DNA of 64,000 nt, taken from assembly GCA_023379025.1 (NCBI GenBank), contig JAMCTH010000003.1, positions 103,362 through 167,361 of the forward strand, written 5' to 3'. The notes below the pieces were generated by a model. The model did not search any database. It was not told the origin of the DNA and saw only the letters and a list, made by a program, of their open reading frames with translations. The translations under genes were made by a program, and so were the position numbers. Numbering within the stretch: the stretch's first letter is position 1; every line of letters begins with the position of its first letter. Source of the DNA: Patescibacteria group bacterium. Lineage in GTDB: Bacteria; Patescibacteriota; Microgenomatia; UBA10105; UBA927. This document shows, piece after piece, positions 2,588 through 21,851 of this stretch.

Positions 2588-3169
2588 CTACAACCCCAGT
2601 TCCTCGTGGTGAACTTGCATCGAAGAAAGTGTTATTTGTATAAATTCATCAACCGGTATCCCAAGTTTTTCTTCGCATTGTGCTATCTGTTCCCGGGCAA
2701 CCGCGGCTGCAAATGCCTTTTGTTTCCATTTCTTTTGAACTGATTCAACAGTCACAAGATCGAGTTTCTTTTCCGGCCGGACCAAGGCAACGGCGACTAT
2801 AAACCCGGTAAGCTCATCCACCGTTTCAAGCGCCCATTCCATAGCTCCCTCAAGCTCTGCGAGGTGCGTTCTTTTTCCGTTATGGGATTTAAGCGCATGA
2901 ACGATCGGGCCCTCCGTTTCTCCGAGTTCATGAAGCCATGAAAGCGTATGCTTCGTGTGCTCGTCAGGACTGTCTTTCGTTTCTTCCCAATCCGCGTCAT
3001 GGAGTAAGCCGAGAATCTCCCACTGATCCGGGTCGCCACCGAGCTTCTCCGCAAGGGCGCGCATGGCAAACCCTACCGCGTACATATGACGCCGGAGGTT
3101 CTGGTTTTGGGTGTGGGCATGAAGAAGATCAAGTGCCTGATTTCTGGTGATCATAAGCTCATGTGACAA
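2588..3169 (-). CDS. HD-domain phosphohydrolase
   Basis: 193 aa. H...HD motif (LLHDADWEE) and conserved His residues typical of the HD superfamily. Confidence 0.7.
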   Translation of the reverse strand: MSHELMITRNQALDLLHAHTQNQNLRRHMYAVGFAMRALAEKLGGDPDQWEILGLLHDADWEETKDSPDEHTKHTLSWLHELGETEGPIVHALKSHNGKRTHLAELEGAMEWALETVDELTGFIVAVALVRPEKKLDLVTVESVQKKWKQKAFAAAVAREQIAQCEEKLGIPVDEFIQITLSSMQVHHEELGL

Positions 3170-6347: not shown

Positions 6348-6421
6348 GGCGCGTTCGTCTAGTGGCCCAGGACGGCTGGTTCTCAACCAGCAAATCATGG
6401 GTTCGAATCCCATACGCGCTA
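6348..6421 (+). tRNA. tRNA-Glu (anticodon CUC)
   Basis: 74 nt cloverleaf. Acceptor GGCGCGU/ACGCGCU (G1-U72), D-arm UCGUCUAGUGGCCCAGGAC (the tRNA-Glu signature), anticodon stem GCUGG/CCAGC with loop UUCUCAA giving CUC, T-arm AUGGGUUCGAAUCCCAU, discriminator A. No encoded CCA. Confidence 0.85.
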
Positions 6422-6507
6422 CAATTTATTTCACTCAGTACAGATCGTCGGTTCGTTTACTCCGAAAGCGAAGGTATTGGGAGAATCCGACTGTGGGTAC
6501 CAATTTA

Positions 6508-7131
6508 TCACTGATTGTCGCCAACTAATACGACGTCTCTTTCTAATAATCTATCCGGAAACGGTAAACCCCGTTTGACAAACTCAGGTTTGCTCTTCTC
6601 AATAACATCCTCGATTTTTGATTGTGTAATAAGTATTGTGGACGCCTCAACACGATCATCAACACTTATTAGTATTTCACCGGCCGCTACCCTCTCGATA
6701 ATTGTCTGTGCCCAGGAGACCTGTTTTTCCCACCGAATCGCCATCTCCTTTTCTCCCTCATGAAAGTCGGGGGTATGCGCTCTCATGGGATCCGCAATCC
6801 CGGGCATTACGACTGTATTAAATCTATGCCGTGAGCCATACGTATCAGCATAATTAGCTCCTAAAGCATTGCTTAATCTGTCTATCATTCTGGTGGGGTC
6901 ATCGGAAGTAGGTAATAGTCCATGTTCAAATCTAAAGAGAGCTATCAGCCGAGCGATGGGACGAGGGAGTATAGTCATTATTGCCCTATCTATTTTCCGT
7001 AGCTCTGGTGTTGGCGGTAGCATCTGACGAACGGCCCAACCGATTTGGTCACCGAGGTAATCTCTATCCCCTTCTGCCATATATGAGATTGTATCAGTAA
7101 AGAATGAATCGACAAACATGTTCGATTTCAT
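6508..7131 (-). CDS. Hypothetical protein, last gene of the island operon
   Basis: Long ORF of about 200 aa from MKSNMF with no family motif recognised. The start is uncertain (ORF extends to 7230). Confidence 0.4.
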   Translation of the reverse strand: MKSNMFVDSFFTDTISYMAEGDRDYLGDQIGWAVRQMLPPTPELRKIDRAIMTILPRPIARLIALFRFEHGLLPTSDDPTRMIDRLSNALGANYADTYGSRHRFNTVVMPGIADPMRAHTPDFHEGEKEMAIRWEKQVSWAQTIIERVAAGEILISVDDRVEASTILITQSKIEDVIEKSKPEFVKRGLPFPDRLLERDVVLVGDNQ

Positions 7132-7403
7132 CCCAACTTCTGTATACATTATGATATAGAGGAAGTGTGTTAATAAAACCGTACAATTGGTAAAAGTGTT
7201 CAACAATAGAATGACACGTAGTACTAGCAATCAGTAGTGCTCTTACTGCCCACACCCCCGGGGTGTGTAACATTGAGTGCAATGTTCCTTTCTATGTTGT
7301 GGACGATCATTATACCTATCAGTAGCAATATGCCCATTCAGGCATACTTGCATTACGTCATAATATCCCATAAACTTCTCCTAATTTTTTTACTGGCCAA
7401 TGT

Positions 7404-7832
7404 TTATTCATCGATTTTTTCGGTTAGTTTAGAAATCAGTTCTTTTAACGTTTTAATGTTTTCAGGATCATCGCTATATGCGTCAAACCAGTAACTTTTT
7501 TCTCCATTCTCGCCTTTATGGAAATTTAGAAATCTTCCGAACCTTTCTATCCTAAAGCCTTTCTCTCCTCCAATTGAAAATAAATTAGAACGAGCTATTA
7601 AACCAATAAAAAGAATAATTAAGGTAATCCAAAGAAAAAGGTTATTTTGGAGAATAGATTCCCCTAGCAATAATTTCGCTAACTTTAGGACTAAAATCCA
7701 TAAAAGGAGATATAAAATAGGTGCCAAAAATCTAAAAGTTGGAACGATTATATTTTTATATGAACTTTCAATAAATTGTATTAACATAGTCATTTTTACT
7801 GGCCAATTAGTTTTCATAAATAAAAATCCCAC
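7404..7832 (-). CDS. Hypothetical small membrane protein (2 predicted TM helices)
   Basis: 142 aa. Hydrophobic stretches ILYLLLWILVLKLAKLLL and LFLWITLIILFIGLIA. AT-rich codon usage consistent with the island. Confidence 0.4.
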   Translation of the reverse strand: MGFLFMKTNWPVKMTMLIQFIESSYKNIIVPTFRFLAPILYLLLWILVLKLAKLLLGESILQNNLFLWITLIILFIGLIARSNLFSIGGEKGFRIERFGRFLNFHKGENGEKSYWFDAYSDDPENIKTLKELISKLTEKIDE

Positions 7833-8560
7833 AAACCTAAATTACTAAGTATACATATAATAGTTAGATTAAACTTTTGTTTTGGGACACTTTTTTCAAA
7901 ATAAGTTTTCAAATTATTGTAAGTAATATTTTGTAGTCCTATTGGTTGATGTGACCATATAAAAACAATTCCACTTCCAAACTTTTGTATTTGATAATAA
8001 CTTTCTAGTTGGTAAAGTGCTTGGTTATTTACTTTATCTATCAATTTTTGAAAAAACTTTTTCTCATCTAAACCCTGCGGGGAGAGAAGCTTTACCTCTA
8101 CTGGAGTTATTACGCTTCTATTTTTTGCAAGAAAATCTGGTGAGCGATTGTAATTGCTTTTTGGCAAATACTCAACTTCAGAAAAATTGCCAAAAAACTT
8201 AGTATTCACTAATCTAGTTGCAACGTCAAACTCTGCAAACATCTCTTCTACTCTTTGATCGTTTTTATTTCTTGTTATCTCTTTGCTGATATAAAAAATA
8301 GAGTTTGAGTTTTTAATTTTGTTGAGAACAGCTTGTGCACTGCTAACCCAGCTTTGATTTTGTAAATTATTTTTTAGCTTAATATAGATAGGTGAAGTTT
8401 GTAAATCCAATTTTTCATATTTATCCAATATCGGCTGGATTAGTTTTTCAATCTCTTTTTTTACTGAATCACGATTTCCTTTATCTTGCTTCATAAATTT
8501 GTATACAAGGAGCCTTATAAAAATTTTGTAGTTCCTGGAACTTGTTACAATAATATTCAA
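7814..8560 (-). CDS. Hypothetical protein (island)
   Basis: 248 aa ORF in the AT-rich island, overlapping both neighbours by short stretches (operon-like). No recognisable motifs. Confidence 0.4.
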   Translation of the reverse strand: MNIIVTSSRNYKIFIRLLVYKFMKQDKGNRDSVKKEIEKLIQPILDKYEKLDLQTSPIYIKLKNNLQNQSWVSSAQAVLNKIKNSNSIFYISKEITRNKNDQRVEEMFAEFDVATRLVNTKFFGNFSEVEYLPKSNYNRSPDFLAKNRSVITPVEVKLLSPQGLDEKKFFQKLIDKVNNQALYQLESYYQIQKFGSGIVFIWSHQPIGLQNITYNNLKTYFEKSVPKQKFNLTIICILSNLGLWDFYL

Positions 8561-8765
8561 TATCTTCTTCTGATAAATGATGTCCTACTTTTGAGAGTTT
8601 TTCTCTTAACCATAATCCATCCTTTGTTTTCCTACTGTATCGGCAAACGCACTTCACAAAAGCGTAAAATCTCTCCAGATCTAACGGGTGGAAAGATTCC
8701 GGATATTGACCAATCCATAATTTAAAAGATTGATCTATCGGATGTTGGTTATGTATTAAAGTCAT
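8481..8765 (-). CDS. Hypothetical small protein (island)
   Basis: 94 aa ORF directly downstream of the methyltransferase gene. Cys/His-containing (CVCRY...HH...YYC). No family assigned. Confidence 0.35.
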   Translation of the reverse strand: MTLIHNQHPIDQSFKLWIGQYPESFHPLDLERFYAFVKCVCRYSRKTKDGLWLREKLSKVGHHLSEEDIEYYCNKFQELQNFYKAPCIQIYEAR

Positions 8766-8801
8766 ATAAAAATCACTATCTTACCGACCAATTATTTTTC
8801 A

Positions 8802-11800
8802 TTAACTGCTTTCTACAACTGCTATTTCTTCCGTCGTTAGGCCGTAGAGTTTATAAACCAATTGGTCAATTTGCTTTTCGTATTCGATAACCTGTGATTG
8901 CTTAATGGAGTTTCGTAGATAATCCCTGTCTGTGGTAATGACTAGGATTTTATTGACCATACTGACAATCTTTTCTATGTTTATTTTATTTGTATTCTTA
9001 ATTGGGAAAAGTTCAATTTTATATTTTTTCCAACGGCTTGTGCCCATACCCGAACTTGTTGATATTTGCTCAAAATACCAGAGCCCAAGTTTTGAGTTTA
9101 AAATTCCTAGTAAATACTTAAGATTGTCACCCACCATAGCAAAGAGAGTCGCTTCGGCAATAAACCCTTTGTCATCATAAGTAAATTTTGGTTTATCAGA
9201 TAACTCTCCCCAAATAATTTTTGGTTTCTCAAATTCTTCAAAATAAACACAATTTCTAAGATTAGTCCAATGTGAGCCCTTATTGTGTCTAATTTCTAAT
9301 TTATCCCTGTACTGCGCTAAATGTTTATAAATTGCAGGGTAATTTTTCGCCACATCAATTCTTGGAAGCTTGCCTTTTATTCCGTTATGGCTATTTATTA
9401 GCCAGAGGTCTTGCCATTCATAATAATATTTTCCGACATCACGACCCCTCAACATTGGCTTAATTATTTCTGCACTTTTTGGGTCTACTTTAGTCAGTTT
9501 GTTTTTTGTCTCGGTGCTAATTACGAAAGCATCATTATAACCATTTAGAATACCTATATAAATTCGCTGGTTTAGTTGCTTTAGTGGGGTAGAATCTTTT
9601 TCTAGCTTTGCTCTAAGTGAAGCTGTTTCTAAATTGCTTATTATCCATCCGTTGTCATCAAGATTATCAAGAGTCACATAGTTATTGCTGAAATAACTAC
9701 TAATATCTACGTACCGGTTCGAGGTTAAATTAAAACTAAGTGCTCTAAGTTTATTTTGGAATACACTTTTTTCGAGGACAATTACATTACTCTCTACAAT
9801 AGCTGTATCGAATACTTGAGAATTCTCGAAATCAATTAGGATTAAAGGGTTGGTGTTTTCTTTAAAGTATTTTCTCAATAACGCACCATACTTTGTTTTC
9901 ATCCATGAGTTCGAACTGATATAAGAAAGTGTCCCCATATTTTTTAAAAGATTTACCCCTTTTTCATAAAACACACAATAAACGTCCGAAGATTTCGAAT
10001 AAGTCTTAAAATCCAACTTTGATAACTCTTGACTTACTTTTTTATTCTTTTGTAACTGAAAATAGGGTGGGTTAGCTATGACTACATCAAAACCACCGTT
10101 CTTTTCAAACACTTCGCTAAAATTAAGTTTCCAAAGGAAAAATGGCTTGATGTTTGCTTTTTTGAAGCGCTCGATTTCCGGCAAGAGAGATAATTTTTTC
10201 TGCTCCTTAACAGATGCCTCAATCAAATCCCAAGTTAAGTTTTCAATTTCTCTCTTGATTTCGTCTTTCTCAGTTTTGTGCGCAGTCTTAAAGAATTGAG
10301 CTTTGAGTTCTTGTAGTTGCTTGGTAATTCTCTCTGCCTCTGAGATAAGATCAAAGAAGTGTTGTTGTTCTAATTTTGCTTCGGACTCAAAAAGCTTAAT
10401 ACCCTCGTATTCCTCGAGTAAGCTATTGCCCTGCATAATTTTATAATCAAGGTTTGGCAGGGGTTTAATTTGCTTGATATCCTGCTCATCAACAATTAAA
10501 GAAAGCCACAAACGAAGTTTGGCTATTTCCACAGCTCCGGGGTCTATATCTACCCCGTACAGGCAGTTTTGAATGGCGTGGCGCTTGAAGTCATAGATAC
10601 TGCGGCCGTTATCCGATAGGTAATTGGTGAGGATGTTGCGAACTCTAATTACTTCGGTCATCATGCCGACCAAAAAGGCACCGGACCCAACCGCAGGATC
10701 GCAAACATGGATTTTTTCTAATTTTTCATCAAGAAGGTGTGCGTTGTCGCGAATACTTTGTGGAAGTCTAAAGTGATAGTCTTTTGTTTCCCGACCTTCA
10801 TTTATAACCCGTGCTTCGTGCTCAATGGCTGTTTCCCCTAAGCGGATGAGGGTTTCGATATCATCCCGTCTAACTTTGCCGTCTAATTCTGTGAGTAGAT
10901 AGTTAATTAAACTTTCCTGACACATATAGTGGACAATCTCACGCGGGGTGTAGTAAGTGCCTTTGGATTTGCGGTCTTTAACTTCCAAAAGGTTCTCAAA
11001 AACCTTTCCCAGCATCTCCGGATCAACGGCCACCTCACGCTCAAGCGGCTCATCTTCCTTAACCGTGAAGTTGTAGCGGTCAAAAACATCTAAAATCCCG
11101 TCTCCGGTGTCGCCCTCTTTGGTTTTCCTATTATTCGAAAAAAGCTCATCGGGTAAGCGAATATCGGTGTGCACCCAGTCATAGTTTCCAAGGGGATCAA
11201 AAAGTCCTCCGTTTAAGAAGGGAATTTTGCAGTTAAATTTGCTATAAAAATCATCTGTACGCTCAACGGCTAAGGCTTCGTAAAAAAGAGGTTCCAGGGT
11301 GTCGTTGAAGAAATTATCGTAAGGAGCTATCGTTTTTTCAAAAAGCCGGCGTAAAAAGTCTTTTGGACCCGTACCCCAAACGGCATCTCTGGCAACCCCA
11401 AACCAGCCCTTTTTTTGTAAAAAGTAAAGGAAAACAATCTGACCAAGAAGCTTTTTAGCAAAGTCGGTGGTGTCGATATTTTTCTCTTGGAAGTCAGATT
11501 TTATCTTGGCGTCTTTGGCAACCATCGCGTCGAGCGCCTCTTTGGTATCCAAAAACAGCTTTTTATACTTTTCAAAGAAGTCTTTGGTAACAACCTCAAC
11601 GCTGAAAGCTGACTCAAGATCACTAAGAGCGGGTTTAAAGTCCGTGTCTTTGAGAATTGGCAGAAGTTGTCTTTGAGCGGTGTGAGTGTTTTCGTTGGCG
11701 CCAACTAAAAAAGAAAAACGGCGAGCCGGGGTAAGCTCGGTTATGGCCTTTATCTTTCCGGCTTTTGACTCTCCCAAGTGATAATCCATCTTTACTAAGG

Positions 11801-12200
11801 AGAGCCGCCAATCGTCAGAGTCTTTGGTATAAAAAGCCACAAGCGCGGCGTCTTTGGCGATACCGCCTCGACTGCCGTTTAAGTACCAAGCAATAAAGTT
11901 TCTTTGCATGGTACGCGCCCGCTCTAAAGCGCTTTGTTTATTTAAACAAACTGCTAAGACTTCAATTTTATGGCCGTCAACGTCCTCATACTTACCCAGA
12001 CGTTCAAGCGTTTTTATATGTGAGTCGTAGGCGTCGGGTATGAGATTGCCTCGATAGATAAAAGTATCGGTATCTAGGAAGTGAAAGAGGTTTTTGGCAA
12101 AGATTAAAAAACGCTCCCTATCGAAGGGATTTTCAAAAGTGCTCTTAATCAGATTTAATGCCCACGTTTCATTCATGGATGTCTTCCTCCAATAACTCAA
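8802..12200 (-). CDS. Large gamma-class N6-adenine DNA methyltransferase, Eco57I / type IIG / PglX / DrmMI-like
   Basis: 1132 aa. Motif X-like GTYYTPREIVHYM, SAM-binding motif I VCDPAVGSGAFL and catalytic motif IV DVVIANPPY. About 400 aa N-terminal region and about 400 aa C-terminal putative target-recognition region, an architecture shared by type IIG/IIL enzymes and BREX/DISARM methylases. Confidence 0.85.
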   Translation of the reverse strand: MSYWRKTSMNETWALNLIKSTFENPFDRERFLIFAKNLFHFLDTDTFIYRGNLIPDAYDSHIKTLERLGKYEDVDGHKIEVLAVCLNKQSALERARTMQRNFIAWYLNGSRGGIAKDAALVAFYTKDSDDWRLSLVKMDYHLGESKAGKIKAITELTPARRFSFLVGANENTHTAQRQLLPILKDTDFKPALSDLESAFSVEVVTKDFFEKYKKLFLDTKEALDAMVAKDAKIKSDFQEKNIDTTDFAKKLLGQIVFLYFLQKKGWFGVARDAVWGTGPKDFLRRLFEKTIAPYDNFFNDTLEPLFYEALAVERTDDFYSKFNCKIPFLNGGLFDPLGNYDWVHTDIRLPDELFSNNRKTKEGDTGDGILDVFDRYNFTVKEDEPLEREVAVDPEMLGKVFENLLEVKDRKSKGTYYTPREIVHYMCQESLINYLLTELDGKVRRDDIETLIRLGETAIEHEARVINEGRETKDYHFRLPQSIRDNAHLLDEKLEKIHVCDPAVGSGAFLVGMMTEVIRVRNILTNYLSDNGRSIYDFKRHAIQNCLYGVDIDPGAVEIAKLRLWLSLIVDEQDIKQIKPLPNLDYKIMQGNSLLEEYEGIKLFESEAKLEQQHFFDLISEAERITKQLQELKAQFFKTAHKTEKDEIKREIENLTWDLIEASVKEQKKLSLLPEIERFKKANIKPFFLWKLNFSEVFEKNGGFDVVIANPPYFQLQKNKKVSQELSKLDFKTYSKSSDVYCVFYEKGVNLLKNMGTLSYISSNSWMKTKYGALLRKYFKENTNPLILIDFENSQVFDTAIVESNVIVLEKSVFQNKLRALSFNLTSNRYVDISSYFSNNYVTLDNLDDNGWIISNLETASLRAKLEKDSTPLKQLNQRIYIGILNGYNDAFVISTETKNKLTKVDPKSAEIIKPMLRGRDVGKYYYEWQDLWLINSHNGIKGKLPRIDVAKNYPAIYKHLAQYRDKLEIRHNKGSHWTNLRNCVYFEEFEKPKIIWGELSDKPKFTYDDKGFIAEATLFAMVGDNLKYLLGILNSKLGLWYFEQISTSSGMGTSRWKKYKIELFPIKNTNKINIEKIVSMVNKILVITTDRDYLRNSIKQSQVIEYEKQIDQLVYKLYGLTTEEIAVVESS

Positions 12201-13005
12201 TGCGCGTAGCGCGCATCAACGACCTCATTTGATCGATCGCTACCTGATTAAGTGAAGCTAACCGTTTATTTTGCGGCAGCCCCTCTTTTATTAAAAGAGC
12301 ATTCAATGATTCCAAATTTGTCAGACAAACAAGTTGCGCGGCAGTTGCATAATCACGAATATTTCCCGGTTTATGTGGATTGGTATCCCGCCACTCGGTA
12401 GCGGTTATGCCGAATAAAGCTTTGTTGAGCACGTCTGCTTCGCTGGCATAGATAAAATTTATTTGCTGTTGAGAGAGTACCGGAGGGATCAAATGAGCTT
12501 TTACAGCGTCTGTGTGTATTCTGTAATTGATTGCCGCTAAATTCCGTTTCAAATCCCAACCCAATTTTTTCTGCTCGATTTCTTCTTCCTTAAGTCTCTG
12601 AAATTCTTTAATGAGATAGATTTTAAATTCGGGGCTAATCCACATGCCAAATTCAAAAGCGATGTCTTTGTGAGCGTATGTGCCGCCATATCTTCCCGCC
12701 CTTGCTTTCAACCCGATAGCATTTGTTTTTCGAACCCAATCTTTGACGCTGATTTTGTAACTGTTTAGACCAGCCTGGCTTCTAATTATGGCGAATTCGC
12801 CATAATTAAACTGAGGATTATTAATCCGCTCCCAAATGCCCAAAAAATCAACGGTGTTCCTGTTTCTGAGCCAATCTGAAATGAAAAAGTCCCCGTCTTT
12901 GGCTTTAAGCATATCAGTGAGTGAAATATAGTCGCCCTCTTTTGTTTGGAATAAGGTTATTTGTCTGCCCTTGACCGTTAATTGTTTTGAACTAGATTTT
13001 TTCAT
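12169..13005 (-). CDS. KilA-N domain protein
   Basis: About 279 aa from MKKSSSKQ. Central YGGTYAHKDIAFEFGMWISPEFKIYLIKEF matches the KilA-N/APSES-type DNA-binding signature (GTWVHP.LA..FA.WLSP.F). The start lies 13 nt after the helicase stop and the stop overlaps the methyltransferase start. Confidence 0.65.
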   Translation of the reverse strand: MKKSSSKQLTVKGRQITLFQTKEGDYISLTDMLKAKDGDFFISDWLRNRNTVDFLGIWERINNPQFNYGEFAIIRSQAGLNSYKISVKDWVRKTNAIGLKARAGRYGGTYAHKDIAFEFGMWISPEFKIYLIKEFQRLKEEEIEQKKLGWDLKRNLAAINYRIHTDAVKAHLIPPVLSQQQINFIYASEADVLNKALFGITATEWRDTNPHKPGNIRDYATAAQLVCLTNLESLNALLIKEGLPQNKRLASLNQVAIDQMRSLMRATRIELLEEDIHE

Positions 13006-16000
13006 ATAAATATTCGGATAAAATGACTTCTCTTGGTCCGGCAACTTGTGCCGAACTTTCAGCCAATGTTTCTTTGAAAAACTCGCTTGGAATACCAAGT
13101 TTCAAAAGCGACAGCAATTTAAGCGGATTTTTATCTTTCTTGTATAGCTCGTCAAGATTTTTGATTAGTCTTTTGGTTGTGGACTTAGGCAAGGCGCCTT
13201 CTTCCAGACGAGCCATAACATTACGAAGGTAGAGCTCATCTTCTTCGGTATAGCCCTTGAAGTCTTTGACTTCCCGGGCCTTGAGAATGTTAAGAAGCTG
13301 GGCGCTGGTGTCACGGCCTCGTTTACCCTTAACTTCTTGGGCTTCTTCGGTTGTGGCCAAAACAAACGCCTGTTTATTTTTCGAAAGCAGTTTATAAAAA
13401 TCTTCTCCTACCGGTTCCCGTCCGGCTTCTTTGGCAACTTCCAGTTTTTGCGCGGCTGAAATAAAGTCAAGCTCCATCGAATCACCACTGGCAACAGCGA
13501 AGAATTTTTGCAGTTTGCCTTTTCTGAAATAAGTAAGTAAAGAATTGGTTTTATCGTCATCCTTATCAATTCTTGCGGTGCGGGCTTTTTTAGGCAGTCT
13601 TTTGATTTTTTCAAATAAGTCCGGGTTAGTATCCCTAATATCGCGAATGATTGAGAGGTATTTAAGATCGCTTTCTTCTTCCTCGTCCTCACCGGTAATA
13701 ACTTCTTTGGAAGTTAAGCGAATCCAAAGGTCGTGCGACTTAATTTCCTCGCCTTCGGTGAGAAGCCTGGCGTCTGCCCCAAGAAGTTCTATAAAAGCTT
13801 CGATTTTAGCTTCGGCCGCCTCTTTGAGTTTAATTTGGTCGTTTGACTGTTTAGTAGGGAAGAAATTAAACGTATATATTTTGTCAAAGGGAGTATCAAC
13901 GCGGTTAATGCGGCCTGTTCTTTGCATTAAACGGGTAGGATTCCAGGGAATGTCATAATTGATAACCACGTTGGACTGGTGAAGGTTGACGCCTTCTGAA
14001 AGTACCTCGGTGGTGACTAGAATCCGGTAATCGTCTTTGGGGAATCGGGCTCCCGCGTCAAAGTTCTCAATCACTTTCTCGCGCACGCTGGCTCCGGAGC
14101 TTCCATGAAACGAGAGCACTTGTTCGGGGAATTTAGTACTTAGGTTTTTCTCAAGGTATTGGGCGGTTTCTTTAGATTCGGTAAAAATAATAAGTTTACT
14201 CTCACCCAAAATTTTACGAGATAAGAGGATGTCTATAAATTTGGCCAGTTTAGGGTCCCCACTGACACGGCGCCAAAGCTTGGTGATATCTCTTAAAATG
14301 GCCAGGTCGTTTTCGAGATCAACTTTGAAAGAGTCTTCAAAGTCTTCTGATTTATAACGCTGGGCCATATCTTCATCTACCAGCCTTTGTATCGCGGCTT
14401 CGTCGTCCTGCTCCAAAAGCTCGAAGATTTTATTGATATGCTTTTTACTGACATAAACATTGCCTTTTTCAAACTCATCTAAAAACCGCTCGTATGAAGC
14501 GATAAACCTATCAAGCGTATTTCTGAACGCAAAGAAGCTACTTTCCAAGCGTTTAACCAAAAGGATTTTCATAAACTTACCCATGTTCTTCTGACCTTGT
14601 TTGTCTGCTTGAGATACGTCGCCTTTGTAGTAGGTAAGGGGCATGTAACGGGCGTATTTGAATTTTTGTGTTATAGACTCGATAGTTGTGGTAAAAATCG
14701 CATCTTCTTCTTTATCGAGCTGGTATAAAATCGGCTCCGGATCTGCGACATCGGGAAATTTGAGGTTTTGCTTTTCCAGGTCTTTACTAAAATAATTGAT
14801 AATTTCACTGCGGGTACGCCTAACCATCAGATATTTAAGGACTTTTTCTCTTATTTCCTTGGCATTATCACGAACGGTGTCGAGATACTCGGCGCGGTTT
14901 CGCTGACGGTCCAAGCCCTTAAGTCTTTTTTCCAGACTTGAGAAGAAGATTTCCAAGTTGGGAAGGTTAGGAATGGTACTTTTCTTGGGTTTTTGAAATA
15001 GCTTGATTTGGCTCAAGATATCTTTCGGCGAATTGTTATAAGGGGTAGCCGTAACTAAAATTACCCTTTTACCACGAGTAATCTGCGCTAGCTTCTCATA
15101 AGTAATGTTATCCTCGGTTCTGAAGCGGTGAGCCTCATCTACAAACACATTGCTGTATTTATCCGTGCCTCTTTCAATTAACTTTTCCAGCTTTCCCAGA
15201 GATTCAAAGTCGGCGGAGACTTTAAAGTCGGAAAAAACATTCGGCCAAGAGCCCGGATTGTTCTCATCCAAAAGAACCGGCGGCGCTATGACCAAGTTTC
15301 TGCCGTCGAGCTGGTTGGCCAGCATAGCGGCAATATAGGTTTTACCCAAACCCACAACGTCGGAGATGAAAACACCGCCGTATTCATCTAGGATTTTTTT
15401 AGCGTTGAGAACTGCTTGCTCCTGATATTCAAGTTTTTTGAATTTAACGGGGGTGTACTTGTAAAAAACGTCTCCGGTTTGACTGATCTGATCTTTGAAA
15501 TACTCATAAAGGAATTTGAGGTAAAGCTCATAGGGGGTGATGGTGTTATTCAGCCAAGTTTTGTTATTGACCGTTTCGATGTATTTTTCGGAGACATCAA
15601 CGGCGTCTTTCCAAAGCTGGTTAAACTTATCTTGGGCAAATCGGTAATCGGACGCAGTTTTAAGCTCAACATTAAATTCAAGATTATCAACCAAGCCTTT
15701 TTGCGAGAAATTGCTTGAGCCGGTGATAACACGGCCAATGTCTCGGTCTCCTTCTTTGAAAGTGATGATATAGAGCTTGGCATGGATGTTGGCGGTAGGA
15801 TAGGCCCTTATTTCCAGCTTTCCGCTTTTTATCCATTCGATAAACCTAGTTACACCCTGTTCTATGCTCTCGGCGTCCTCGGATTCTTCCAGCTCGGAGG
15901 CAATGAGAGTTGAAAATTCCTCTTTGGCTTCGGCATGCGAGAAGGTGAGCGATAGTTGTTCTTCTGCGGCCTTGATATTCTCAAGCGTTTCGCGTCCGGT

Positions 16001-16189
16001 GCCGATTCCTATTAAAATGCGGATTTTCTCGGTTTTCTCAAGAACCGGATAGAGCTTGTAAAACCCGCTGGTATAAAAATAGCCGACTAAACTATCGAAA
16101 AAACGAGCGTCTTTAATTAAAACCCTGAAGCGGTTTAAAAGGCTTATTTCTTTTTCGTTTGTTATAAACGTTAGGTCTGAAACTTGCAT
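12992..16189 (-). CDS. PLD-family nuclease domain fused to SNF2-family (SF2) helicase
   Basis: 1065 aa. N-terminal HxK PLD motif HAKLYIITF...GSSNFS. Then Walker A GLGKTYIAA, DEAH box VFVDEAHRFR, motif III VTATPYNNS and motif VI QRTGRINR. About 300 aa helical C-terminal tail of unknown function. Confidence 0.85.
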   Translation of the reverse strand: MQVSDLTFITNEKEISLLNRFRVLIKDARFFDSLVGYFYTSGFYKLYPVLEKTEKIRILIGIGTGRETLENIKAAEEQLSLTFSHAEAKEEFSTLIASELEESEDAESIEQGVTRFIEWIKSGKLEIRAYPTANIHAKLYIITFKEGDRDIGRVITGSSNFSQKGLVDNLEFNVELKTASDYRFAQDKFNQLWKDAVDVSEKYIETVNNKTWLNNTITPYELYLKFLYEYFKDQISQTGDVFYKYTPVKFKKLEYQEQAVLNAKKILDEYGGVFISDVVGLGKTYIAAMLANQLDGRNLVIAPPVLLDENNPGSWPNVFSDFKVSADFESLGKLEKLIERGTDKYSNVFVDEAHRFRTEDNITYEKLAQITRGKRVILVTATPYNNSPKDILSQIKLFQKPKKSTIPNLPNLEIFFSSLEKRLKGLDRQRNRAEYLDTVRDNAKEIREKVLKYLMVRRTRSEIINYFSKDLEKQNLKFPDVADPEPILYQLDKEEDAIFTTTIESITQKFKYARYMPLTYYKGDVSQADKQGQKNMGKFMKILLVKRLESSFFAFRNTLDRFIASYERFLDEFEKGNVYVSKKHINKIFELLEQDDEAAIQRLVDEDMAQRYKSEDFEDSFKVDLENDLAILRDITKLWRRVSGDPKLAKFIDILLSRKILGESKLIIFTESKETAQYLEKNLSTKFPEQVLSFHGSSGASVREKVIENFDAGARFPKDDYRILVTTEVLSEGVNLHQSNVVINYDIPWNPTRLMQRTGRINRVDTPFDKIYTFNFFPTKQSNDQIKLKEAAEAKIEAFIELLGADARLLTEGEEIKSHDLWIRLTSKEVITGEDEEEESDLKYLSIIRDIRDTNPDLFEKIKRLPKKARTARIDKDDDKTNSLLTYFRKGKLQKFFAVASGDSMELDFISAAQKLEVAKEAGREPVGEDFYKLLSKNKQAFVLATTEEAQEVKGKRGRDTSAQLLNILKAREVKDFKGYTEEDELYLRNVMARLEEGALPKSTTKRLIKNLDELYKKDKNPLKLLSLLKLGIPSEFFKETLAESSAQVAGPREVILSEYLYEKI

Positions 16190-16237
16190 GAGCTGATTAT
16201 ACGTCTAAAACCCGATGAGGTCGAGAGGGTTTAGAGG

Positions 16238-16771
16238 CTATTTACTCCAAATACCACGCTTCTTTTTCTGTGCTTCTTCTTGAGCTTTCAGTAATTCATC
16301 CTGATACTTCAGCTTTCTCCGATCCTGATAGATAGTAACTTTCACTAAGCCTTGTTTCGCAAGCTCCACCACTACATTTTTCCCTTCGATAAACGGATAG
16401 GCAAGCACCCTGCCGAACCGGTCTGACGTGTAGGCGTCATATTCAAACGTGACGGTTTTTCCCTGAACGAGTTTGATCATCGCTTTCGTTGCATCTTCCT
16501 CGAACGGTTGCCCGGAATCCGGAGCATTCACCCCGACAAATCGGACGATCTGACCATTTGCTAACTCTATAGTGTCGCCATCTATAACTCGTTTGACCGT
16601 TTCCTTTGCTGGAAGGTTCCGGATAGTGGTTGTTGAGACATTGGGTTGTTCGAGTATTGTTTTTACCTGTTGTTCATACTTTGTCCCACCAAGAAAGGAT
16701 AACAGAGCAACGAGGAGTGTTGCCGGCACTAAGACCAGTTTGTTGGTGTTGTACTTCGATTTTGCATTCAT
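16238..16771 (-). CDS. Thermonuclease (staphylococcal nuclease / SNase-like), membrane-anchored or secreted
   Basis: 177 aa. N-terminal TM helix, VIDGDTIEL...RFVGVNAPD catalytic motifs of the SNase fold, and a Lys-rich tail. Confidence 0.85.
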   Translation of the reverse strand: MNAKSKYNTNKLVLVPATLLVALLSFLGGTKYEQQVKTILEQPNVSTTTIRNLPAKETVKRVIDGDTIELANGQIVRFVGVNAPDSGQPFEEDATKAMIKLVQGKTVTFEYDAYTSDRFGRVLAYPFIEGKNVVVELAKQGLVKVTIYQDRRKLKYQDELLKAQEEAQKKKRGIWSK

Positions 16772-17058
16772 GGCGATTTGATAAGACTGGCAAACCGGAG
16801 TTTGTACAGGCTTTCCAGTAAATCAGATCCGGCGTATCCAGCCAAAAGTGACATCCGCCAATCGACGTTCATGATGAGTCCTGACATAAGACCGACGAGC
16901 ATGGATACCAAAATGGTGAATCCGAATTGCTTCCAGGAGAACTGAAATGTTTTGGGGTCAAACTCCTTGGCTTTAGTGATACCAACTAGTCCACGCACAA
17001 AGCCGCCAGTAGCACCGGCAATGGCCTGTCCAATAATAGTCCCGACCATAATTTCCAC
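16768..17058 (-). CDS. Small membrane protein (2 TM), unknown function
   Basis: 96 aa, Gly/Ala-rich TM helices. Overlaps the nuclease start by 4 nt (translationally coupled). Confidence 0.4.
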   Translation of the reverse strand: MEIMVGTIIGQAIAGATGGFVRGLVGITKAKEFDPKTFQFSWKQFGFTILVSMLVGLMSGLIMNVDWRMSLLAGYAGSDLLESLYKLRFASLIKSP

Positions 17059-17071
17059 CCCCTTTCTGTAG

Positions 17072-18424
17072 TTAAAACAGATAGACGGTTGCTTTTCCTT
17101 TACCTTCCATTTTCAGCATACCACGGGAAACAAGAGCAGATAAATAGTCGGTTGCCGTACTTTGTGAGATATGTAACAAATCACGCACCTGTTCGTTTGT
17201 AATTTTCTTTTTTTCCTGGGCAAACGAAAAGATTTTCGATATCGATTCTTCCCGTTTTTTCTTTTTCGCATCATTGCCTTTGACTGAATTTTCTTTCCTG
17301 CGCGCGTCAAACATGGCGGTTGCCTGTTTTTCGATTTCTTCTTGAGAAGGTTGGGGTGGTTGGGGTGATATGGGAGATACGGGAACATCCGGCTGTATGG
17401 GAGGAGTTACCGGCTGCGGTTGTATCACCGGTTCCGGTTGGATGGGTTGTGGCGAAGGTAGCGGTTTGTCCGTGTGTTGGGAGAGATATGGTGACGGATC
17501 AATATACCCCAGATATCCGTTATTTACATCCGGATTGTTTGGTTGCATCCCGAAATGAAGATGCGGTCCGGTCACAAACCCGGTAGCATCGGAAAGCCCG
17601 ATGGCTTGGGCTTTTGTGACGATATCGTTGACCAACACCCCGAAGGATTGCAGATGGCAATAGATACTCGATCCCCAGGAATGCTTGATGGTGATGGAAA
17701 TACCAAAATCCCCGTTGTCGCCAACTTGGGTAACTACCCCATCATCACATGCAAGAACGTCGGTCCCACTGGGTAATCCGAAATCCAAACCGTTATGTCC
17801 AACAATACCCCACTCCTGATATTTTTTCTTGATGGCCTCATTATCCGGTTGGCTCCCGAACCCAAACAAAACGGGAAATTCTGCGTAAAACGGATATGCA
17901 AGGACCGGAATTGCGGGTGGAGTTGGTTGATTTTGGGGCGCTGTAGTGCCCTGCACGGTTTGATTGTCCGGATTTTCCGGTTCAGTTACAGGAGACACAG
18001 TTTGAGCAGATGGAGTACTGATAGCTGGCACGGATGGAGTCGGACTGGGTACAGATGAAGGCTCTGGTGATGATGTGTCGGATGGTTGAGCCGGTGCTGG
18101 TGCGGGAACGTCAGTTGCCACTGGTTCCGGTTGGTCCGACGAGGGTTGATTTACTACTGAAGCTGGATTTGAAGGTGACGGCTGAACTGGTTGGGTATTG
18201 GCCGATTCGACACTGGATCCCGACAAGTCGGATGTCGGTTCCGGCCGATTGGGAACCTCGGACATTACACCGGTATTTGAGCCTGGATCTGGTGGAGAAA
18301 CCGGATCGTCTGCCATGATTCTAGAATACACCCCACCCTTCGCTAAAGCTACGGCGGGCAAGCAAAACAGGAATCGGCCAAAACCGGAGGCTGTACCGAC
18401 AAACGCCAACCGGCAATCGGCCAA
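17072..18424 (-). CDS. M23 (LytM-type) peptidase with Pro/Ser/Thr-rich linkers and a C-terminal winged-helix domain
   Basis: 450 aa. HNGLDFG...D...GPHLHF M23 metallopeptidase motifs. Long low-complexity P/S/T/Q linkers. C-terminus ITNEQVRDLLHISQSTATDYLSALVSRGMLK looks like a DeoR/MarR-type wHTH. The true start may be the internal MADDPVSPP near 18316. Confidence 0.75.
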   Translation of the reverse strand: MADCRLAFVGTASGFGRFLFCLPAVALAKGGVYSRIMADDPVSPPDPGSNTGVMSEVPNRPEPTSDLSGSSVESANTQPVQPSPSNPASVVNQPSSDQPEPVATDVPAPAPAQPSDTSSPEPSSVPSPTPSVPAISTPSAQTVSPVTEPENPDNQTVQGTTAPQNQPTPPAIPVLAYPFYAEFPVLFGFGSQPDNEAIKKKYQEWGIVGHNGLDFGLPSGTDVLACDDGVVTQVGDNGDFGISITIKHSWGSSIYCHLQSFGVLVNDIVTKAQAIGLSDATGFVTGPHLHFGMQPNNPDVNNGYLGYIDPSPYLSQHTDKPLPSPQPIQPEPVIQPQPVTPPIQPDVPVSPISPQPPQPSQEEIEKQATAMFDARRKENSVKGNDAKKKKREESISKIFSFAQEKKKITNEQVRDLLHISQSTATDYLSALVSRGMLKMEGKGKATVYLF

Positions 18425-18550
18425 AACGCCTGCCCGCTGCGCCTATCTACAAACACAATCGGCCAGAACGGTGGGTTCTGGCCGAATAGCAAAATCAGAC
18501 TCCGTGGGCAAGCTATGGCAGGCGGGGTGGGTTCTGGCCGATTTGAAATT
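18365..18550. promoter_or_regulatory. Array of direct and inverted repeats (TCGGCCARAAC / GGGTTCTGGCCGA) between the divergent M23 peptidase gene and the two-component operon
   Basis: AATCGGCCAAAAC occurs twice. A 10-5-10 inverted repeat CGGCCAGAAC-GGTGG-GTTCTGGCCG and a second GGGTGGGTTCTGGCCGA follow, all within about 180 nt. Confidence 0.35.
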
Positions 18551-18948
18551 GGCGGCTCCGCGCCCCCACCCCATTGGAGAGAACGAGCAGATAAGCGCGC
18601 ATTCCGATGTGCACTCTATCCAACACCCGAACGTGGTGCGTAGGGCGCTAAAGATAATCTTAGCGCGAAGCGCCACATTATAGAACAGAGTGGCGGCAAT
18701 TCATTTTTCCCCTTTACCCCTTTTTTCTTGCCGCCACTTTCAGGAATTTTTGATGAAATACGTACGAATATAGTTTTGTAGCGCTACAGACAACAATACC
18801 CCCTTCATCCCGGACGAGTTTTTTGCCTTTGCAGGGAGAGACCTTGCAAACCACGTCCGCCCAAATGCAAAGCTAAGCTTTAAAATTTCCGGGGGGGTAA
18901 CAGAAAAATTCATATTGTTTTCATGTTCGACACGGTATACTACCAGCT

Positions 18949-20711: not shown

Positions 20712-21851
20712 ATGAAAAAAATTACCTTGGCGGCGCTCATAGTCCTTGTTTTCCTGGCGGGCGTCGGTGCCGCAAGCCTCGTCTATACCGGTTTGGGAGA
20801 TATGCGGCTCGCCGGAAACAGAACGGAGATCATAAATCAGCCGATCACCGACGAGAGTTCCGCGGTAACCAGAGCGGTAAAAACCACACTCCCCTCTGTC
20901 GTCACGGTCGGCATCGACACGACCATCGATAATGCTCCCTCATTTCAGTTTGACCCCTTCAATCCGTTCGGTGCGCCCAATTTCGTTCCCGGCGGCACAA
21001 CACAGGTCAAACAGAATATCGGCAGCGGGTTCATCGTCTCCGCAAACGGACTGATCGTTACCAATAAACACGTAGTATCCGATACAACGGCCGCCTATAA
21101 AGTCATCACCAATGACGGCAAAAAATATACCGTCTCCCATATCTACCGCGACCCTTTAAACGATCTGGCGGTGCTTCAGATTCCCGCTTCCGGTCTCAAA
21201 CCGCTGTCCCTCGGAGATTCTTCGCACCTGGTACTCGGACAGCTCGCCATCGCCATAGGCACTCCGCTCGGACAGTTCCAAAATACGGTAACCGTCGGCG
21301 TTATCTCCGGACTGGGCCGGGGCATCACCGCAGGATCACCGTTTGCCGGCGCGGTCGAACACCTCAATAATGTCATCCAGACCGATGCGGCAATTAACCC
21401 CGGCAACTCCGGAGGCCCGCTCCTTAACGCAGGCGGACAGGCCATAGGAATAAATACCGCAGTCGCCTCTCAGGGACAAAACATCGGCTTTGCCATCCCG
21501 ATCAATGTCGTCAGATCGGTGCTGACCAACTTTAAGAAAAACGGGTCCTCCTTCAGCCAGGCCTATCTCGGAGTCCGCTACAGTACGATTGCCAAAAATC
21601 AGGCTCTCATGAATAATACGGTAGCCGGAGCCTATATTGCCCAGGTTATCGGCGGTTCCCCTGCGGAGAAGGCCGGAATCCGCGTCGGGGATATCATCAC
21701 CGGCGTGGATGGCGCACGCGTTGGAAGCACTCAGACGAACGAACTTTCCCTCCTCATATCAGAGAAAAAGGCAGGCCAGACGGTGCGGCTCACGATCTGG
21801 AGAAATAATACGACCATGACCCTTAACGTCACGCTCGCTACCACGCCATGA
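20712..21851 (+). CDS. htrA: HtrA/DegP-family serine protease with PDZ domain
   Basis: 379 aa. Signal/TM anchor, trypsin-like triad contexts TNKHVV, DLAVL and GNSGGPL, and a C-terminal PDZ (GAYIAQVIGGSPAEKAGIRVGDIITGVDG). Confidence 0.92.
   Translation: MKKITLAALIVLVFLAGVGAASLVYTGLGDMRLAGNRTEIINQPITDESSAVTRAVKTTLPSVVTVGIDTTIDNAPSFQFDPFNPFGAPNFVPGGTTQVKQNIGSGFIVSANGLIVTNKHVVSDTTAAYKVITNDGKKYTVSHIYRDPLNDLAVLQIPASGLKPLSLGDSSHLVLGQLAIAIGTPLGQFQNTVTVGVISGLGRGITAGSPFAGAVEHLNNVIQTDAAINPGNSGGPLLNAGGQAIGINTAVASQGQNIGFAIPINVVRSVLTNFKKNGSSFSQAYLGVRYSTIAKNQALMNNTVAGAYIAQVIGGSPAEKAGIRVGDIITGVDGARVGSTQTNELSLLISEKKAGQTVRLTIWRNNTTMTLNVTLATTP

Follow-up and report, generated by a model that had tools for sequence, protein, structure and literature searches.

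A 64,000-nucleotide (nt) stretch of contig JAMCTH010000003.1 (the window) from a bacterium of the Patescibacteria, or candidate phyla radiation (CPR), encodes three neighboring minus-strand genes, whose products are an M23-family peptidase ending in a winged helix-turn-helix (wHTH), a small membrane protein, and a homologue of staphylococcal nuclease (SNase). The reading that we prefer, itself somewhat short of probable, is that this locus is a chromosomal, Microgenomates-specific module of the holin/endolysin type in which the lysin carries an autoregulatory DNA-binding domain. In appearance, the module is closer to a holin/lysin pair that has been domesticated than to a wall enzyme secreted in the ordinary way.

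According to this model, the product of the first gene would be made in the cytoplasm without a signal and would combine an intact M23 domain, a basic helix, and a wHTH, set apart by Pro-rich disordered spacers. The small protein would serve as a Sec-independent gate that lets the peptidase through to the wall, whether by lysis or in a non-lytic manner resembling type 10 secretion. The SNase homologue may be an accessory, membrane-anchored and facing outward, that acts on DNA outside the membrane. Inside the cell, the wHTH would bind sequence-specifically to a conserved palindrome, AATCGGCCA-N13-TGGCCGATT, which would overlap the gene's own putative leaderless promoter and which belongs, in the window, to a seven-site array reaching into the coding sequence (CDS). 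In this way, the gene may repress itself, the lysin may be kept on DNA until its release, or both. In other systems, holins are known to export enzymes that lack a signal without lysing the cell (PMC9527704, PMC6200909).

All three minus-strand open reading frames (ORFs) named in a preliminary description of this DNA were present, and the host lineage agrees with the host-dependent lifestyle to which that description alluded. The features of the locus are as follows.

17072-18316, minus strand: M23–wHTH gene, 414 amino acids; stop codon 17072-17074, start ATG 18316-18314
17915-18316, minus strand: disordered N-terminal part, residues 1-134 (pLDDT <50, composition)
17447-17914, minus strand: M23 metallopeptidase domain, residues 135-290 (PF01551, pLDDT >90, Foldseek)
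17345-17446, minus strand: Pro/Gln-rich disordered linker, residues 291-324, 41% Pro (structure prediction, composition)
17075-17344, minus strand: long basic helix (325-369) and wHTH (370-414) (AF2 pLDDT >94, Foldseek)
16768-17049, minus strand: gene for the holin-like small membrane protein, 93 amino acids (ORF, PHROG matches, adjacency)
16238-16771, minus strand: gene for the SNase-type nuclease homologue, 177 amino acids, with N-terminal anchor (Pfam SNase, hydropathy)
18195-18543, both orientations: array of seven copies of a 13-nt motif (motif count against shuffles)
18457-18487, no strand assigned: 31-nt palindromic core element (promoter of family genes; conserved across 13 loci)
18323-18328, minus strand: -10-like hexamer TATTCT, 6 nt 5' of the ATG (read off the sequence)
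16196-16224, minus strand: promoter-like site TCGACC-17-TATAAT for the next gene (scan, 10/12 match)

Layout of the M23–wHTH protein

Homologues of the first gene returned from NCBI, JGI, and UniRef were named "M23 family metallopeptidase" or "peptidoglycan DD-metalloendopeptidase family protein," whereas those of the small protein were named only "hypothetical protein." Neither an M23–wHTH fusion nor such a module in CPR bacteria was described in the literature searched.

The peptidase domain matched Pfam Peptidase_M23 (PF01551; MEROPS M23) with an E value of 8e-21 and 74.4 bits against a cut-off of 28.7. Its zinc-binding and catalytic residues were intact, comprising an HNGLD motif (H174 and D178), H221, and an HLH motif (H252 and H254), and were invariant or at least 90% conserved among 69 homologues. 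Foldseek searches with an AlphaFold model of the protein, built on the 69-sequence alignment, revealed a LytM fold, with matches to ShyA, DipM, lysostaphin, and LytM at E values of 5e-12 to 1e-9, and the top PHROG matches of the domain were phage endolysin and metallo-endopeptidase families. The closest relatives outside CPR are Chloroflexota proteins that start directly with the same extended M23 domain and also have no signal. From these comparisons, the domain is assigned to a putative lysin-type, signal-less lineage and not to the MepM, NlpD, or EnvC type. The M23/LytM endopeptidases lysostaphin, LytM, ShyA, DipM, and EnpA share its fold and its HxxxD…H…HxH zinc site. In contrast to the window protein, which has no signal and carries a wHTH in place of a wall-binding domain, these enzymes are Sec-exported or phage-released and are targeted by SH3b, LysM, or coiled-coil regions.

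A TTG at 18424, which would add a signal-like N terminus, had been put forward as an alternative start for the peptidase gene. However, the N termini of the homologues, which read MADD, MIDD, or MVDD (M-A/I/V-D-D), align instead with the ATG at 18316. The 36-amino acid extension from the TTG is not conserved and is translated DNA repeat, its FGRF and LADCRLA segments deriving from the repeat TTTGGCCGATT. The start is ATG 18316, and the protein is therefore 414 amino acids long. Neither a signal peptide nor a transmembrane (TM) segment was found in this protein or in any of the 69 aligned homologues, and the highest 19-residue hydropathy window of the protein reached a Kyte-Doolittle (KD) value of only 1.36, so that the protein can no longer be taken for an ordinary extracytoplasmic enzyme. 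In the HtrA protein encoded in the same window (20712-21851), the N terminus carries a hydrophobic signal or anchor of the normal kind; Sec signals are therefore in use in this organism.

The long Pro/Ser/Thr linkers of the preliminary description are real, consisting of two stretches that are Pro-rich by composition and are both predicted to be disordered. Residues 1-134 contain 24% Pro, 17% Ser, and 10% Thr and carry a net charge of -14, and two copies of the 13-nt motif considered below fall within the DNA encoding this region.

In the Pfam search, the C-terminal ∼60 residues of the protein had only sub-threshold matches to helix-turn-helix (HTH) families, namely HTH_24 (18.0 bits; cut-off, 21.9), IclR, Fe_dep_repress, SoFic-like_C, and Phage_rep_O. 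The predicted structure comprises a 45-residue helix followed by an HTH and a β-hairpin wing (pLDDT >94). In the full-length model, H3 spans residues 385-397 and the β-strands span residues 402-404 and 411-413, and a separate model of the C-terminal 88 amino acids agrees. Foldseek matched the C-terminal model to ArsR/SmtB proteins (CadC, rmsd 1.2 Å), MarR, AspA, eS25, and DsrD, with an rmsd of 1.2–2 Å across matches. No peptidoglycan-binding fold was found among these matches, and that candidate was rejected; structure prediction and Foldseek together confirm the wHTH.

The recognition helix of the window protein reads SQSTATDYL, and the family form, HVSQSTATxYL, is near-invariant. HTH_24 was matched at E ≤1e-3 by 36 of 101 relatives of the C-terminal module (best value, 2.8e-7), and the wHTH protein matched the PADLOC SoFic profile at 4.8e-5. 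In its fold, its terminal position, and these weak profile matches, the domain resembles the C-terminal wHTH of SoFic-type Fic proteins and the ArsR/MarR repressors. Those proteins have a Fic or sensor domain attached to the wHTH, where the window protein has a peptidase and a disordered region; the window protein also falls below the Pfam gathering scores. When the helix and wHTH were used alone as a query, 655 cluster representatives were retrieved, with the module C-terminal in all of them. These proteins are 70-550 amino acids long, mostly begin M-x-D-D/E, are rich in Pro, Glu, Ser, and Thr, and have no TM segment. One 169-amino acid relative (P0160) fuses a DnaA N-terminal domain (PF11638, 1e-17) to the wHTH, a sequence match that hints at replication-related members of the family.

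Repeat array and palindrome at the putative promoter

The 13-nt motif AATCGGCCARAAC occurs seven times in the 64-kb window with no more than one mismatch, and all copies lie within 18195-18543. The expected number is 0.23 per 64 kb, and none of 100 shuffles reached seven. Copies start at 18195(-), 18238(-), 18372(+), 18415(+), 18457(+), 18475(-), and 18531(-), those in the same orientation being spaced 42-43 nt apart, and the two inside the CDS encode PNRPEP and ESANTQ. One pair of copies forms a perfect palindrome at 18457-18487, the plus strand of which is AATCGGCCAGAAC-GGTGG-GTTCTGGCCGAAT. In relatives, the palindrome takes the 31-nt form given above, with arm sequence AATCGGCC, and is present as a single copy per 5-13-kb locus.

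The palindrome was found upstream of the gene in loci L001-L008, L011, L014, L018, and L021. In L005, L007, L138, and L153, it lies directly 5' of a -10-like TAT(A/T)CT box placed 6-8 nt before the ATG, and in L001-L004, L008, L011, L014, L021, and L181 it lies ∼700 nt upstream. Family members that lack the M23 domain also carry it, either 5' of the gene (L087, L141, and L162) or inside the CDS, where it is read as NRPxSTI[LP]ADS (L119 and L183). Across 13 loci, the arms are 100% invariant and show no compensatory change although the proteins are only ∼45-50% identical, and the 13 nt at the center can face either way between unchanged flanks. That the arms are invariant, covariation is zero, the center occurs both ways around, and Rfam gives no match argues for sequence-specific recognition of the palindrome as duplex DNA. 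An RNA hairpin or known RNA was considered and rejected on the same zero covariation and reversible loop and on the lack of an Rfam match at either gathering or relaxed thresholds; the terminator-like appearance of the element leaves its sequence invariance across genera unexplained. A neighboring OmpR-type response regulator was likewise rejected as the repeat-binding protein because the two-component system is not a conserved neighbor whereas the palindrome is conserved. Because the conserved palindrome lies at the gene's own promoter, it points to a putative intracellular, sequence-specific role for the wHTH, instead of or besides the capture of extracellular DNA.

The window hexamer TATTCT lies 6 nt before the ATG, which implies that the M23–wHTH mRNA is probably leaderless or near-leaderless; a promoter scan did not return this hexamer. 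The same TATACT/TATTCT-6-8 nt-ATG arrangement is present in L005, L007, L153, L003, L141, and L162. In the window, -10-like hexamers precede by 6 nt the ATGs of both the M23 gene (18323-18328) and the helicase gene that follows the trio (16196-16201), again with the same arrangement in relatives, which suggests that leaderless mRNAs may be widespread in this organism.

Exclusiveness of the palindrome to this family was rejected. Of 120 hits in a pattern scan of metagenomes, most were unrelated hairpins, as expected by chance, and ∼21 were true copies. Several of these were in other contexts, including sites flanked by unrelated genes and sites at the head of a long non-coding stretch that is conserved.

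Such a stretch characterizes one Microgenomates clade (L001, 5224-6000, and the equivalent regions of L008, L011, L014, L109, L092, L197, L200, and L204). There the palindrome lies 12-13 nt past a TATAAT box; next come a terminator-like GGAAAC…GTTTCC/U-run and, after it, ∼700 nt of conserved non-coding sequence with blocks such as CCCACCCACCC and GGCGCCCTAGGGGGCGCC. The stretch has no Rfam match, is present in L109 without a following M23 gene, and is a candidate unannotated non-coding RNA or long leader. Upstream of the M23 gene, the window itself shares two further elements with L005, L007, and L153, namely a conserved hairpin at 18689-18738, GTGGCGGCAA-(purine-rich loop GGGGTAAAGGGGAAAAA)-TTGCCGCCAC, and a conserved block at ∼18620-18675, TAGCGCTTCGCGCTAAGATT…TAGCGCCCTACGCACC.

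An array of this kind could also reflect an iteron- or centromere-type system, in which the wHTH would bind repeats around its own gene for replication initiation or segregation. The seven repeats with their 42-43-nt phasing into the CDS, the Phage_rep_O hint from Pfam, the Foldseek match to the centromere-binding protein AspA, and the DnaA fusion of P0160 all speak for such a system, and λ O with ori-λ, where iterons lie inside the protein's own gene, offers a parallel in its repeated, partly palindromic sites in and around a CDS. In contrast to λ O, however, there is no replication context here, the wHTH is C-terminal rather than N-terminal, and relatives have one palindrome and no array. 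No GC-skew inflection was observed at the locus, and no dnaA, dnaN, or par genes were found nearby in any locus. This explanation, which would leave the M23 domain, the membrane protein, and the SNase homologue unaccounted for, is considered very unlikely.

The small membrane protein and its linkage to the wHTH gene

The three genes of the window are co-oriented and tightly spaced, as had been described, and the independent promoter-like site of the next gene, which encodes an HKD+SNF2 helicase with its ATG at 16189, is the downstream boundary of the three-gene unit. Of the two junctions for which translational coupling had been claimed, only that between the small ORF and the SNase gene is an overlap (ATGA); at the other, the ATG of the small ORF (17049) lies 22 nt past the M23 stop and is preceded by a Shine-Dalgarno-like G-rich run, GGGGGTGG.

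At 93 amino acids, the small protein equals in length its exact-match database record (P0267; M1555_00850, "hypothetical protein" at NCBI). A strong TM segment is present at residues 42–62 (KD 2.1), whereas the N terminus (residues 2-24) forms a weak, Gly-rich hydrophobic segment (KD 1.36); of the two TM segments previously assigned, one is thus clear and the second, being weak, is plausible only. The C terminus is a strictly invariant, amphipathic 21-amino acid motif, DWRMSLLAGYAGSDLLESLYK. A TM segment followed by an amphipathic helix is a build reviewed for small holins (PMC9527704). No Pfam domain was found in homologues of the small protein, which are restricted to the same CPR clade as the M23–wHTH protein. 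The window protein matched holin families weakly (phrog_6384, E = 1.9e-3; phrog_785, E = 2.7e-3; Pfam Phage_holin_3_3, E = 0.046; and a Pfam LydA-holin hint), and its match to CrcB was weaker still and below the cut-off. Among 39 homologues, phrog_6384 was matched by 29 and phrog_785 by 17, with a best E value of 2.8e-5.

Phage holin–endolysin cassettes and the domesticated, non-lytic "type 10" secretion systems derived from them, such as Serratia ChiWXYZ and Clostridioides difficile TcdE/TcdL (PMC9527704, PMC6200909), constitute the reference class for the preferred reading. Like these, the locus pairs a signal-less, muralytic-type enzyme with a holin-like protein built of a TM segment and an amphipathic helix, here in a chromosomal, non-prophage setting. 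Unlike these, the locus shows no evident spanin or secreted cargo, its peptidase is optional, and its lysin bears long disordered spacers together with a wHTH of the DNA-binding type. The small protein also departs from typical holins in being very conserved, with its invariant C-terminal motif, and its gene often converges on the lysin gene instead of being co-transcribed with it.

More than 340 full-coverage homologues of the M23 and wHTH part were found, all in Microgenomates-group Patescibacteria (Gottesman-, Blackburn-, Beckwith-, Davies-, and Amesbacteria and WWE3). Adjacency was assessed by tblastn over loci from GTDB species representatives, of which 19 had enough flanking sequence. 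In 17 of these 19 loci, no more than ∼400 nt separated the small-protein gene from the wHTH gene, the former being co-directional or convergent to the latter and before or after the SNase gene, and the "unknown" genes of 116-122 amino acids convergent to the M23 gene in L001-L004 proved to encode the same small protein. Survival of this linkage through rearrangement suggests a functional tie. Divergent homologues of the small protein (46-51% identity) had no adjoining wHTH gene. The SNase gene is missing from some of the clade and changes its place in the gene order, and a fixed three-gene operon is ruled out by the varying orientation and order and by the optional nature of both SNase and M23. 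Beside wHTH-family genes, although not near the module in the window, a ∼100-amino acid Trp_repressor/HTH_38-like protein recurs (L001, 7533-7838; L003, 7473-7802; and L088, 780-1073) and is another candidate for binding the palindrome.

An active or recently decayed prophage lysis cassette, consisting of an endolysin, a holin, and a nuclease in a genomic island, would account for an endolysin-like M23 domain beside a holin-like protein, and the adjacent low-GC island, with KilA-N and restriction genes next to a tRNA-Glu, might appear to support it. However, the pair is conserved at 45-80% identity in several lineages at the level of candidate phyla (Gottesman-, Beckwith-, Davies-, and Amesbacteria and WWE3) and in differing chromosomal contexts. 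No phage structural genes (capsid, tail, or terminase) flank the module in any locus examined, neither the M23–wHTH protein nor the small protein had a match among the 2.9 million viral contigs of IMG/VR, and the downstream island is a defense island rather than a prophage. Prophage origin was rejected on its lack of phage neighbors and viral-contig matches, and the explanation is largely refuted and highly improbable.

Several observations weigh against a holin/lysin pair with an autoregulatory lysin. The holin homology of the window protein is weak (E ∼2e-3), and the small protein is conserved far beyond typical holins and, as noted, was not found in the viral contigs. M23 is present in only 6 of the 101 relatives of the C-terminal module. 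Locus L119 (SNase match, E = 1e-84) encodes a 348-amino acid disordered-wHTH protein without M23, followed by the small protein and SNase, and L183 has the first two of these genes. Because L119 and L183, both close relatives, keep the partnership without the peptidase, the conserved core is the wHTH protein and the small membrane protein rather than a lysin and a holin, and M23 is an insert typical of much of the Microgenomates. This persistence without the peptidase is the main weakness of the preferred reading, since the small protein could have a different function for the wHTH protein. In addition, the palindrome lies apart from family genes in L097, L109, L136, and L140 and is absent or undetected upstream of L009, L016, and other family genes. 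Long Pro/Ser/Thr-rich spacers, finally, are commoner in wall-spanning extracellular proteins than in transcription factors.

A purely cytoplasmic role would turn the wHTH protein into a transcription factor or nucleoid-associated protein, one of a CPR-wide family that combines a disordered N terminus with a wHTH, with M23 as a sensor of muropeptides or peptides or as a cleaver of non-wall substrates and the small protein as a tether or signaling partner. The large family sharing the C-terminal module (655 cluster representatives), mostly without M23 and with no signal or TM segment anywhere, is in keeping with this proposal, as are the SoFic/ArsR/MarR type of the wHTH, the palindrome at the promoter, and the invariant amphipathic helix of the small protein, which resembles a protein-interaction surface. 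Nevertheless, M23 catalytic residues invariant over 69 homologues imply retained peptidase chemistry, and the known substrates of the M23 family are peptidoglycan cross-links, which are absent from the cytoplasm. The similarities of the small protein, moreover, are to holins, at low significance (the weaker CrcB match being below the cut-off), and the linked third gene product would act outside the membrane. We regard a purely cytoplasmic role as unlikely but worth keeping in view.

It is also conceivable, if distinctly unlikely, that proteins combining an M-x-D-D start, a disordered region, a basic helix, and a wHTH are CPR-specific palindrome binders that form an export-coupled switch with the small protein, M23 being exported cargo. 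By a logic resembling that of FlgM, the wHTH protein would repress its leaderless promoter for as long as the membrane partner has not let it out of the cell. In Microgenomates, M23 would leave as built-in cargo, so that the transcription factor would itself be the secreted wall enzyme.

The nuclease homologue, the surrounding window, and biological meaning

The third gene product matched Pfam SNase (PF00565) with an E value of 4.8e-20 and 72.5 bits against a cut-off of 21, and a thermonuclease in the PDB at 3e-14 over residues 52-176. Residues 12-176 aligned to NCBIfam NucI (NF047694; E = 8e-22) with 77.5 bits against an equivalog cut-off of 250. Hydropathy places an anchor at residues 12-30 (KD 2.16), with the N terminus predicted to be inside and the SNase domain outside, in agreement with the TM-anchored SNase previously assigned. 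What had been called a Lys-rich tail is simply the helix with which the SNase fold normally ends, and it aligns to AQAKKEKLNIWS of staphylococcal nuclease. The N-terminal anchor followed by an SNase OB-fold with this helix recalls the staphylococcal thermonucleases Nuc2/NucI. In contrast to those enzymes, the window protein scores 77 bits where the equivalog cut-off is 250, and the D40/E43 pair is N/D here and T/E or N/N in relatives. Of the active-site residues, D21, R35, and R87 are kept, whereas D40→N, T41→A, and E43→D are changed in the window; in the closest relatives, the general base E43 is N, and in the wider clade the Ca2+ ligand D40 is T. Efficient DNA degradation is therefore not assured, the catalytic activity of the homologue is uncertain on its sequence, and the role in DNA degradation previously assigned to it is weakened. 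In L015 (1375-3004), the SNase homologue adjoining the M23–wHTH gene is split into two tblastn segments ∼1.1 kb apart, a possible insertion or pseudogenization that would fit dispensability of SNase.

The preliminary description had seen in the trio a cell-surface module for wall remodeling and DNA scavenging. Its domains and its anchored SNase stand, whereas the lack of a signal, the altered SNase site, the promoter palindrome, and the unfixed composition of the trio do not agree with it. In such an extracytoplasmic module, M23 would open the cell's own or a host's wall, the spacers would span the envelope, the wHTH would capture double-stranded DNA, and SNase would cut this DNA for salvage or uptake. 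The disordered, Pro/Ser/Thr-rich spacers do resemble wall-spanning linkers, the SNase homologue has an N-in anchor and an outward catalytic domain, and persistence of wHTH, small protein, and SNase without M23 in L119 ties the wHTH to the nuclease and not to wall cutting. CPR bacteria cannot make nucleotides de novo, and one proposed source of these is the uptake of DNA (PMC10633639), a dependence in line with scavenging. By contrast, no family member has a signal peptide or TM segment, and a near-invariant recognition helix together with an invariant promoter palindrome fits intracellular binding better than the non-specific capture of extracellular DNA. In SNase, D40 is replaced by N or T and E43 by D, or by N in the closest relatives; SNase is missing from many loci, and in the one CPR bacterium tested genetically comEC was not needed for growth (PMC10633639). 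A surface module of this kind, which would presuppose export, is therefore judged unlikely, though a genuine contender.

Beyond the module lies a low-GC (33-43%) defense island (6348-16189) adjoining a tRNA-Glu (6348-6422). It contains three ORFs without matches (6508-8560), a type IIG restriction-methylase (8802-12200; PADLOC E = 0), a KilA-N protein (12169-13098) matching the candidate defense gene PDC-S22 at 6e-128, and the HKD(PLD)+SNF2 helicase (12992-16189; 2.7e-42). In L005, a RadC gene and a type I restriction-modification system occupy the same position after SNase. Because different restriction genes occur at the same place in the window and in L005, the site downstream of the module looks like a putative integration hot spot. 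Elsewhere in the window, a minus-strand gene (3159-5477) encodes a 772-amino acid protein that joins a class I lysyl-tRNA synthetase domain (tRNA-synt_1f, 3e-78) to a B3/4 domain at its C terminus (8e-19). The usual home of B3/4 is the β subunit of PheRS, and the combination is a predicted unusual fusion.

CPR bacteria make up a large share of bacterial diversity, and to our knowledge almost nothing is known of how they build, remodel, or breach their own or their hosts' cell walls. A signal-less, intact hydrolase beside a holin-like protein suggests that a phage-derived, Sec-independent route may be used routinely for a housekeeping or host-interaction enzyme. We also know of almost no characterized regulation in these organisms, for which the wHTH fusion and the invariant promoter palindrome provide a rare and directly testable candidate regulator–operator pair. 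Export of the wHTH protein would mean a new kind of link between gene control and events at the envelope; without export, the family would be a new class of DNA-binding proteins, found throughout CPR, in which the peptidase is an unusual insert.

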